Positions 34,007-35,600 of a DNA stretch of 64,000 nt are shown here, in pieces. The position numbers and the translations under genes were made by a program. The stretch is taken from NCBI RefSeq assembly GCF_988243305.1, contig NZ_OZ547136.1. One strand, written 5' to 3'. The number at the start of each line of letters is the position of its first letter. The stretch's first letter is position 1. Below the pieces are notes generated by a model. That model searched no databases and was not told where the DNA came from. It saw only the letters and a list, made by a program, of their open reading frames with translations.

Positions 34007-34034
34007 TTGACTCATTTTGAACTCTCCCTATAAT
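34007..34034 (+). promoter_or_regulatory. Sigma70 promoter of the valU-valX-valY-lysV tRNA operon (TTGACT, 16 bp spacer, TATAAT)
   Basis: -35 at 34007-34012 and -10 at 34029-34034, about 17 bp upstream of the first tRNA. Confidence 0.75.
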
Positions 34035-34051
34035 GCGACTCCACACAGCGG

Positions 34052-34127
34052 GGGTGATTAGCTCAGCTGGGAGAGCACCTCCCTTACAAGGAGGGGGTCG
34101 GCGGTTCGATCCCGTCATCACCCACCA
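34052..34127 (+). tRNA. valU: tRNA-Val (anticodon UAC)
   Basis: GGGTGATTAGCTCAGCTGGGAGAGCACCTCCCTTACAAGGAGGGGGTCGGCGGTTCGATCCCGTCATCACCCACCA (76 nt). Confidence 0.95.
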
Positions 34128-34171
34128 ACTACTTTATGTAGTCTCCGCCGTGTAGCAAGAAATTGAGAAGT

Positions 34172-34247
34172 GGGTGATTAGCTCAGCTGGGAGAGCACCT
34201 CCCTTACAAGGAGGGGGTCGGCGGTTCGATCCCGTCATCACCCACCA
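34172..34247 (+). tRNA. valX: tRNA-Val (anticodon UAC)
   Basis: Identical 76 nt sequence, second copy. Confidence 0.95.
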
Positions 34248-34293
34248 CTTTCTCGCCAGCTAAATTTCTTGTAAAAATGTGAAGTACCGAAGT

Positions 34294-34369
34294 GGGTGAT
34301 TAGCTCAGCTGGGAGAGCACCTCCCTTACAAGGAGGGGGTCGGCGGTTCGATCCCGTCATCACCCACCA
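34294..34369 (+). tRNA. valY: tRNA-Val (anticodon UAC)
   Basis: Identical 76 nt sequence, third copy. Confidence 0.95.
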
Positions 34370-34373
34370 CTTC

Positions 34374-34449
34374 GGGTCGTTAGCTCAGTTGGTAGAGCAG
34401 TTGACTTTTAATCAATTGGTCGCAGGTTCGAATCCTGCACGACCCACCA
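34374..34449 (+). tRNA. lysV: tRNA-Lys (anticodon UUU)
   Basis: GGGTCGTTAGCTCAGTTGGTAGAGCAGTTGACTTTTAATCAATTGGTCGCAGGTTCGAATCCTGCACGACCCACCA (76 nt). Confidence 0.95.
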
Positions 34450-34454
34450 ATGTA

Positions 34455-34480
34455 AAAAAGCGCCCTAAAGGCGCTTTTTT
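34455..34480 (+). terminator. Terminator of the val/lys tRNA operon (AAAAAAGCGCCctaaaGGCGCTTTTTT)
   Basis: Perfect hairpin with flanking A-tract and T-tract immediately after lysV. Confidence 0.85.
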
Positions 34481-34586
34481 GCTATCTGCGATACTCAAAG
34501 ATTCGAACCTGCAGCAGGTTCGAGTTGAGCGCAGCGAAACAACGGAGCCGCTCGCGGCGACGGCCCGAAGGGCGAGCGAAGCGAGT

Positions 34587-34645
34587 CATCCTGCACGACC
34601 CACCAATGCAAAAAAGCGCCCTAAAGGCGCTTTTTTGCTATCTGC
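34587..34645 (+). repeat. Direct repeat of the lysV 3' end (from the T-arm) plus its terminator; tRNA-Lys 3' remnant
   Basis: ATCCTGCACGACCCACCAATGcAAAAAAGCGCCCTAAAGGCGCTTTTTTGCTATCTGC duplicates 34431-34488 with one mismatch; preceded by GCAGGTTCGAG and an inserted GC-rich segment. Confidence 0.7.
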
Positions 34646-34715
34646 AATTTGCGAAATTGCCTGATGCGCTTCGCTTATCAGACCAACTATGTCCGGCAGT
34701 TCCCGTGCCTCTCAT

Positions 34716-35600
34716 CTACTGCGCCAACGCCGCCAGCAGTTTAACCATCGCGGGCGTCACCTGCTGTGTTTCATAAACAATATATAAATCTGCAGGGATG
34801 CGCTGTTTGAGCGGACGGAAAATGACACCTGGCCAGTTCATTTGTGCGTAGCTGTCCGCTATCAATGTGATACCAATGCCCATACTGACCATAGCGAGTA
34901 CCGTTTGCGGTTCATTAACTTCGCGAATAACAACCGGTGAAAATCCCACCTGCTGGCAAACTCGCTGCAAAAAATCCCAGTCAGTGTAAACGGGCGGCAT
35001 TGTAACGAAATACTCGTCACCTAGCGCTTCCAGCGGGACGGTGGAAAATGATGAGAGATGATGCTCTTCAGGCATCGCCACCAGAAACGCCGATTCATGC
35101 AACCGTAAGCTGGTAAAACCTGCCGGTGGTTCTGTCGCCATTCTCCAGATTCCGGCATCGAGTTCACGTCGTTCCAGCAGGGCCATTTGCATCGCGGGCA
35201 TCTTTTCGCGAAAAAGAACGTCAACGTTAGGATTTTCCCTGAGGAATCGCCGCATAACCGGGCGCATCCGTCCCCACATTGCCGTTCCCACAACCCCGAG
35301 TTCAATCCGCCCTGCTTCTCCCCGACCTATTTGTTCAACCCGAGCCAATACATTATTTGCATTCACCAGCAATCGACGCGATTCTTCCATCAAGATTTTG
35401 CCCGCATGTGTCAGTACGACGCTGCGCGAATGGCGAATAAAAAGCTGCGTGCCGAGTTGATTTTCCAGCTCTTTAATATGAATACTGAGCGGAGGCTGAG
35501 ACATATTTAAACGCGCTGCTGCGCGACCAAAATGCAACTCTTCCGCTACGGCAAGAAAATAACGGAGCAACTTAAGATCTGTTCTATATACGCGTTCCAT
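34716..35600 (-). CDS. xapR: LysR-family regulator of the xanthosine operon
   Basis: ORF 34716-35615; I prefer the ATG at 35600 (MERVYRTDLKLLRYF...). N-terminal LysR HTH. Confidence 0.85.
   Translation of the reverse strand: MERVYRTDLKLLRYFLAVAEELHFGRAAARLNMSQPPLSIHIKELENQLGTQLFIRHSRSVVLTHAGKILMEESRRLLVNANNVLARVEQIGRGEAGRIELGVVGTAMWGRMRPVMRRFLRENPNVDVLFREKMPAMQMALLERRELDAGIWRMATEPPAGFTSLRLHESAFLVAMPEEHHLSSFSTVPLEALGDEYFVTMPPVYTDWDFLQRVCQQVGFSPVVIREVNEPQTVLAMVSMGIGITLIADSYAQMNWPGVIFRPLKQRIPADLYIVYETQQVTPAMVKLLAALAQ

Follow-up and report, generated by a model that had tools for sequence, protein, structure and literature searches.

Background

The closest described relatives of the element studied here are the tRNA-linked repeats (TLRs), which lie in tRNA and rRNA operons and whose last 18-19 bp reproduce the 3' end of the gene upstream (PMC8144298). 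By the account that Stenum et al. 2021 (PMC8144298) give of this earlier work, Egan and Landy made the first observation of TLRs in 1978, and Rudd compiled them in 1999. E. coli K-12 carries 22 copies at ten loci (PMC8144298), and the EcoGene list also holds 22 TLRs of K-12. Small RNAs of the TLR family, RrA, RrB and RrF, are located between terminators T1 and T2 of rrnA, rrnB and rrnD (PMC8144298). At rrnB, the TLR between the two terminators is expressed by read-through, and the proposal is that its tail guides RNase E to the kind of cut by which the RNA upstream is also matured (PMC8144298). A further point of comparison is the RtT RNA of Rfam (RF00391), which is rttR in the tyrT-tyrV operon (Bosl and Kersten 1991, as cited through Stenum et al. 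2021). For the TLR family as a whole, the literature gives no known function (PMC8144298).

Here we describe the region downstream of lysV in a 64-kb stretch of DNA (the window), where the 3' end of this tRNA gene and its terminator occur twice. The element that produces this layout is an already known and routinely annotated TLR/RtT RNA repeat. A first-pass annotation of the region had described the arrangement correctly and had offered two origins for it, a decayed tRNA-Lys gene and an integrase footprint; neither origin held up, and the described RtT/TLR family had gone unrecognised.

Organization of the lysV locus

The order of genes in the window, gltX, then valU-valX-valY-lysV, then xapR, is that of E. 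coli (Table 1). A repeat finder reported a 61-nt direct repeat in two copies with 97% identity, the two mismatches being T/C at 34453/34609 and G/A at 34490/34646. Each copy is made up of 18 nt of lysV tail, a hairpin terminator and 12 nt of flank; the repeat starts inside the lysV T-loop and therefore holds the last 18 nt of the gene. The 18-mer, ATCCTGCACGACCCACCA, is identical at 18 of 18 positions at 34432-34449 and 34588-34605, and these are its only occurrences in the 64-kb window, where 0.05 would be expected by chance. The duplication had been reported earlier with a single mismatch, which is correct over the slightly shorter span then considered, and with about 19 nt of lysV, which has to be revised to the 18 nt measured here, along with small shifts of the boundaries.

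The TLR unit begins at 34450 on the + strand, immediately after the end of lysV at 34449. The repeating unit is 156 nt long (tail 18, terminator and flank 43, body 95), and the window holds about 1.4 units, so that the lysV tail and terminator occur twice. The 95 nt between the repeat copies (34493-34587) have a G+C content of 63%, rising to 74% in their GC-rich part, and no second copy of this GC-rich insert occurs in the 64-kb window. Both the T-arm-like fragments and the GC-rich insert that had been noted between the copies are indeed present.

Table 1. Features of the lysV region and its repeat, in window coordinates
Feature	Position	Strand	Remarks
Promoter-like site, valU-valX-valY-lysV operon	34007..34034	+	TTGACT, 16-nt spacer, TATAAT; 11/12 matches
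valU, valX, valY, three tRNA-Val(UAC) genes	34052..34369	+	tRNA searches; names from MG1655 annotation
lysV, tRNA-Lys(UUU)	34374..34449	+	ARAGORN; Rfam tRNA model 79.2 bits
Direct repeat, copy 1	34432..34492	+	last 18 nt of lysV, terminator 1, flank GCTATCTGCGAT
Terminator 1	34452..34482	.	GCGCC/GGCGC stem between A6 and T6; -19.1 kcal/mol; role inferred from form
Rfam RF00391 (RtT RNA) match	34480..34605	+	51.6 bits, gathering score 45; full model length, positions 1-130
Body of the repeat (apparently rlV), TLR 95 nt between repeat copies	34493..34587	+	aligned with 32 other TLRs
Palindromic hairpin, helix P2	34500..34526	+	-15.9 kcal/mol; 6/6 pairs
Most conserved family core	34561..34587	+	CGGCCCGAAGGGCGAG, small hairpin, then CGAGTC
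Direct repeat, copy 2	34588..34648	+	18-nt lysV 3'-end copy (34588-34605), terminator 2, flank GCTATCTGCAAT
Terminator 2	34608..34638	.	-21.1 kcal/mol; faces tRNA operon and convergent xapR
xapR, convergent neighbour, outside repeat	34714..35598	-	coordinates transferred from extracted locus L001 (+32988)

The body opens with GATTCGAACCTGC, an exact 13-nt reverse complement of GCAGGTTCGAATC in lysV (inverted repeat I2). One base further on, GCAGGTTCGA repeats the T-stem 5' strand and TTCGA in direct orientation, with 10 of 10 matches. Helix P2 brings the two kinds of copy together: its 5' side is the inverted lysV T-arm copy ATTCGAACCTGC (14/17), and its 3' side is the direct T-stem 5' strand with TTCGA (10/10). 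At its other end the body runs directly into the tail copy with no gap.

These features invite the reading that the repeat is the relic of an extra tRNA-Lys gene, which would require a tandem duplication of lysV with its terminator, after which the second copy lost its 5' two-thirds to overwriting or scrambling. The two T-arm halves of lysV are both in the unit, as is the complete acceptor 3' strand including CCA, such that tRNA-Lys positions 49-76 are left intact when the GC-rich core is removed; each unit also has its own terminator copy, and tandem tRNA-Lys arrays do exist. However, neither ARAGORN nor the Rfam tRNA model found a tRNA or pseudo-tRNA in 34480-34650, even at E values up to 10. 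Likeness to a D-arm or an anticodon arm is absent from the unit, in which only T-arm and acceptor 3' sequences are present.

Both terminator hairpins have the symmetric layout A6-GCGCC-CTAAA-GGCGC-T6. A simple terminator scan detected neither of them (34452-34482, 34608-34638), apparently because the A and T runs lengthen the stem, and they were folded directly instead. Both hairpins are intact, with the energies given in Table 1, in line with the earlier description of two tandem terminators before xapR. Given their symmetry, they may act bidirectionally, which could include stopping the convergent xapR transcript. The promoter-like site in Table 1 is the sole sigma-70-like site upstream on the + strand, and no promoter-like site was found inside the repeat, in 34450-34650. 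In the predicted fold of a read-through transcript covering 34374-34650, the second tail copy, and not the gene's own 3' strand, is the pairing partner of the lysV 5' acceptor strand. If that predicted fold occurs in the cell, read-through transcripts could misfold tRNA-Lys.

A reading frame on the + strand at 34525-34776 passes through the core and would encode an arginine-rich peptide (RSRSRRRPEGRAKR) resembling the annotated "protamine-like protein" Tpr (RCRRQRPEGRSAQR); the Tpr frame used for this comparison lies inside the tyrT repeats (extracted locus L003, 1588-1677, - strand). The sole start in the frame at 34525-34776 is a TTG buried in a hairpin. A peptide gene like tpr was rejected here: the frame is arginine-rich in the core, but it has no credible start and reads through the terminator. 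The GC-rich core seems to yield the arginine-rich frame as a by-product, and this casts doubt on tpr too.

Identity of the repeat

The segment matches the RtT RNA model of Rfam over its full length (Table 1), and in other E. coli genomes this interval is annotated as "RtT sRNA" by PGAP, the pipeline of NCBI. The curated MG1655 record has no feature between lysV and xapR, so the repeat is easily mistaken there for a pseudogene or an att scar. Since the repeat has been described and standard pipelines annotate it already, it calls for no particular further work.

The window repeat appears to be rlV, the lysV copy among the 22 TLRs of K-12. The strain table of Stenum et al. 2021 has a 96-bp TLR deletion printed as "rIV" (PMC8144298); by our estimate this deletion starts about 75 nt downstream of lysV, so we read the entry as rlV. 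Exact copies of 18-nt tails were counted in MG1655 at lysV (1), tyrT/tyrV (4), the lysT operon (5), serX (3), argV/Z/Q (3) and proK (1), and a total of 22 is reached when serW', a fourth serX copy and three rRNA copies, all named in PMC8144298, are added. The core AACG-hairpin-CGGCCCGAAGGGCGAG-hairpin-CGAGT.ATCC is common to all extracted units, and after it comes the tail of their own gene. The window copy differs from that of K-12 W3110 by one base in the 102 nt compared. Two checks on other loci and strains gave the same picture: the identity of the tail with the lysV 3' end holds across most strains, and the body is present at other TLR loci.

Structure and spread of the family

Thirty-three long-type TLR units from 18 genomes, linked to Tyr, Pro and Lys tRNAs, were placed in a structural alignment, in which CCCG.AGGG and its flanking bases are invariant. 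The five-helix structure is paired in 91.7% of the cells of this alignment, as against 28-48% when the partners are slid. Eleven pairs have changed on both sides, and the covariation score was reached by none of 500 shuffles. RNAalifold independently recovered the outer helix, where A-U, G-C and C-G alternate by tRNA type. The units also resemble the neighbouring gene: the 5' part of the unit matches the reverse complement of the cognate T-arm at a mean of 13.5 of 17 positions (10.2 in a shuffled-stem control), and the direct copy of the T-stem 5' strand with TTCGA matches at a mean of 9.0 of 10 across the aligned units.

The conserved core also adjoins Tyr, Pro, Arg and Ser tRNA genes and the 5S rRNA gene, with each copy ending in the 3' end of its own gene. 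A body homologous to those linked to such different genes is not what a tRNA-Lys pseudogene would have, and compensatory changes in the helices are not those of free decay. Together with the empty tRNA searches, this makes decay of an extra lysV copy very improbable as the origin of the repeat. A very old tRNA-gene origin may apply to the TLR family as a whole.

When one genome per species was scanned with a sequence pattern, at least 120 stretches matched, which include many chance matches in GC-rich genomes and represent a sample rather than a census; the pattern (CAACG...) misses the E. coli lysV copy itself, which has CGACG. Among the matches listed, TLRs follow tRNA-Lys, tRNA-Tyr, tRNA-Pro(CGG), tRNA-Pro(UGG) and tRNA-Arg(ACG) in many Enterobacterales and in Orbaceae, and weaker relatives occur in Marinobacterium, Amphritea and Photobacterium. 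The tail copy carries the species-specific changes of the adjoining tRNA, for example of tRNA-Tyr in Enterobacter sp. BIGb0383 and of tRNA-Arg in Serratia oryzae. Also among the matches listed, the same core with a 5' arm complementary to the local tail was seen outside the Enterobacterales, in Marinobacterium lutimaris, an Amphritea MAG, Gilliamella, Zophobihabitans and Photobacterium. The Marinobacterium tail matches the nearest tRNA-Arg(CCG) over its first ~10 nt only, so the linked gene may be another.

The 156-nt unit of the window, with its internal terminator, is also located behind tRNA-Lys genes of Klebsiella sp., Pantoea sp., Mixta sp. and Erwinia persicina, where the number of tandem copies ranges from one to three (Klebsiella sp. 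BIGb0407 has one and three, Pantoea sp. IMH three). The serX units of K-12 have a terminator in every unit too. In Erwinia persicina and Acerihabitans arboris, the Lys-linked TLR locus adjoins gltX, as it does in E. coli. Since the same 156-nt unit is found in other genera, and the gltX neighbourhood is kept in these two species, the arrangement is old.

Within this type, the lysV copy and its twin after lysQ have the lowest RF00391 scores, at 46.7-52 bits against 75-83 in other genera. Of the 10 pairs of outer helix P1, by which the 5' arm would join the tail copy, the lysV copy has 5, compared with 8-10 in most members, and Rfam marks four mispairs; the sequence of the middle hairpin also departs from the family consensus. 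With its low scores and weak P1, the E. coli lysV copy may not fold or be processed like the tyrT copies.

Variation in copy number at lysV and lysQ

The lysV site of E. coli carries zero, one or two copies of the repeat. The empty site is that of strain E20, where the sequence equals a single copy of the 61 nt exactly, and REL606 is another natural non-carrier; one unit is present in the window, and two are present in strain EC0880B_R4 (extracted locus L006, 693-974). In EC0880B_R4, a laboratory-derived isolate with the sole two-copy allele examined, the units differ at several bases of the T-arm hairpin (CCTGCAGCAGGTTT and GCTGCCGCAGGTTC), so the second is not a fresh duplicate of the first. 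The junction of the repeat with the xapR flank was found in 1910 of 5426 complete E. coli genomes and that with an alternative flank in 380 more, such that about 42% of the 5426 have at least one lysV copy and about 58% have none. A full-length copy of the core is present somewhere in 3239 genomes.

In 2509 of the 5426 genomes, a near-identical unit is also located behind lysQ, where the lysT operon ends. The coordinates of this twin are 1354-1509 in the extracted MG1655 locus L008 and 1582-1737 in a second extracted locus, L005. The left repeat copy of the lysQ unit carries the lysV-type flank CTGCGAT and the right copy the lysQ flank, which suggests that the unit moved from lysV to lysQ by homologous recombination.

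The DNA beyond the second terminator (from about 34652 in the window) is of two types in E. coli: xapR-xapB-xapA-yfeN before yfeR, as in K-12, or a small FlxA-like gene only, as in REL606 and XJ6-3 (extracted loci L136, 4320-4420, and L137, 4395-4490). The break between them is at CTGCRATTTG, 3 nt beyond the end of the 61-nt repeat. In strain XJ6-3, the interval from yfeD to gltX, immediately upstream of the tRNA operon, also has an insertion of IS200/IS605 type (extracted locus L137, 370-2014); it carries TnpB and truncated TnpA genes and is missing from K-12 and REL606. The repeat and the xap segment vary independently, all four combinations of presence and absence being found, and the xap segment was therefore rejected as an island tied to the repeat.

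The 3' ends and T-loops of tRNA genes are classic integration sites, and the two copies of the lysV 3' end could in principle be the attL and attR sites of a phage or island that had entered lysV and was later almost wholly deleted. In keeping with this, the direct repeat begins in the T-loop, and the DNA just downstream varies by strain between xapRBA-yfeN and the FlxA-like gene. However, both tail copies lie on one side of the variable xap segment, and there are only 95 nt between them, belonging to a chromosomal repeat family found by five to six other kinds of stable-RNA genes. The repeat also extends 43 nt past the tRNA, through the terminator and native lysV flank, and is identical there to the empty site. 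The neighbours are gltX and xapR, with no integrase or phage gene within several kb.

Searches of phage and plasmid libraries with the insert gave no genuine matches, only tiny or mislabelled chromosomal fragments with gltX or purU as neighbours. Two of the records concerned, NZ_CP098226.1 and NZ_CP079158.1, are filed as plasmids and are actually chromosomal, one having broken gltX pieces around lysV and the other purU-ychJ-rssA by tyrT; several other "plasmid" matches are records of 0.3 to 4.9 Mb. With this, the footprint of an integrase-mediated event suggested by the first-pass annotation is close to excluded.

As evidence against its own reading, that annotation had named an ancient duplication, invariant across Enterobacteriaceae and free of mobile sequence. 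This largely applies: the architecture is indeed old and widespread in Enterobacterales with no mobile DNA, but it is not invariant, since copy number varies.

Proposed mechanism and possible roles

We consider it very probable that the full explanation is a TLR copy subject to recombination, read-through, processing of its tail and dispensability, in the manner set out below. Changes in copy number (0-2 in E. coli, 1-3 elsewhere) would occur through homologous recombination between the 61-nt or 156-nt direct repeats, as we infer from the alleles seen. The unit would move between lysV and lysQ by recombination in the tRNA and terminator sequence that they have in common.

The repeat would have no promoter of its own. 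Since none is apparent inside the unit and the sole strong site is the one upstream of the operon, at 34007-34034, transcription would take place only on read-through of terminator 1, and would be stopped at terminator 2. For the lysV copy, such read-through is proposed by analogy only, with the rrnB TLR as the model. A tail identical to the tRNA could let normal tRNA 3' processing, that is, an RNase E cut and trimming, set the 3' end of the RNA. The E. coli lysV copy is partly eroded and probably does nothing essential, given that it is missing from most genomes, that its outer helix is degraded and that a strain without all 22 TLRs exists.

A different possibility is that the lysV repeat is a purposeful small RNA, kept at a low level by leakage through terminator 1 and acting as a regulator or decoy like RrA, RrB and RrF, or as a mimic of the tRNA-Lys 3' end. 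The family does have a conserved structure with covariation, on which there is also a CaCoFold remark in PMC7657543, and the architecture of the unit is kept across genera. The two-terminator layout is that of rrB, for which expression, processing and binding to Hfq and CsrA are described (PMC8144298). Against such a role, about 58% of complete E. coli genomes have no lysV copy, and in this copy the outer helix is eroded and the scores are the lowest within the type. Earlier work on the family also weighs against it: the stringent-response role once claimed for the tyrT copy was withdrawn, each of the 19 tRNA-linked TLRs scores <0.01 as a CsrA binder, a strain without all 22 TLRs was built, and its authors state that TLRs have no known function (PMC8144298). 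We regard a purposeful small RNA at lysV as unlikely.

Two regularities of the long type might point to something less passive than a repeat that only recombines. The body starts with a reverse-complement copy of the T-arm of the neighbouring gene, and the core sits exactly inside a direct T-loop copy, between TTCGA and AT. TLRs could then be products of an unrecognised copying process at stable-RNA 3' ends, in which, for example, template switching at the T-arm quasi-palindrome would seed new units. Alternatively, they could be a selected RNA mimic of the upper half of tRNA, and the RNA would engage tRNA 3'-end enzymes or toxins. The lysV copy would be a recent product in the first case and a working decoy in the second. 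We hold either version to be distinctly improbable, and keep to the passive TLR copy described above.

The lysV locus could be of use for the study of TLRs, because different strains naturally have 0, 1 or 2 copies.

Comparison with known systems

Integrase att duplications at tRNA genes resemble the lysV repeat in that a direct repeat of the 3' part of the tRNA starts in the T-loop. They differ in that the lysV repeat has no island or integrase and continues through the terminator, and in that the intervening DNA is a chromosomal repeat family.

With RrA, RrB and RrF, the lysV repeat shares its position, which is at the end of a stable-RNA operon with a terminator on either side, a 3' end that copies that of the upstream gene, and the core AACGTTGC...GCAACGGCCCGGAGGG. 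Unlike it, they follow 5S rRNA, their two terminators differ from each other in sequence, and they are of the short type, which has no T-arm hairpin. Their expression and protein binding are experimentally established, whereas the lysV copy is described here from its sequence.

The RtT RNA of Rfam, rttR in the tyrT-tyrV operon, is matched by the window repeat over the full length of the model and in the order of its parts: 5' arm, T-arm-like hairpin, two small hairpins, CCCGAAGGG and a tRNA-identical tail. Where the four copies at the tyrT locus reach 133-137 bits, the lysV copy has 51.6, a half-broken outer helix and a middle hairpin of different sequence. A terminator precedes it, unlike the tyrT copies, and its tail is that of tRNA-Lys and not tRNA-Tyr.

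The best counterparts are the K-12 TLRs themselves, rlV in particular. The window repeat follows directly after a tRNA gene on the same strand, and has an 18-nt identical tail and a GC-rich core. Its position between two terminators is that of the TLRs after serX, proK, lysQ and rrnB. It shows no essential difference from the TLRs of K-12.
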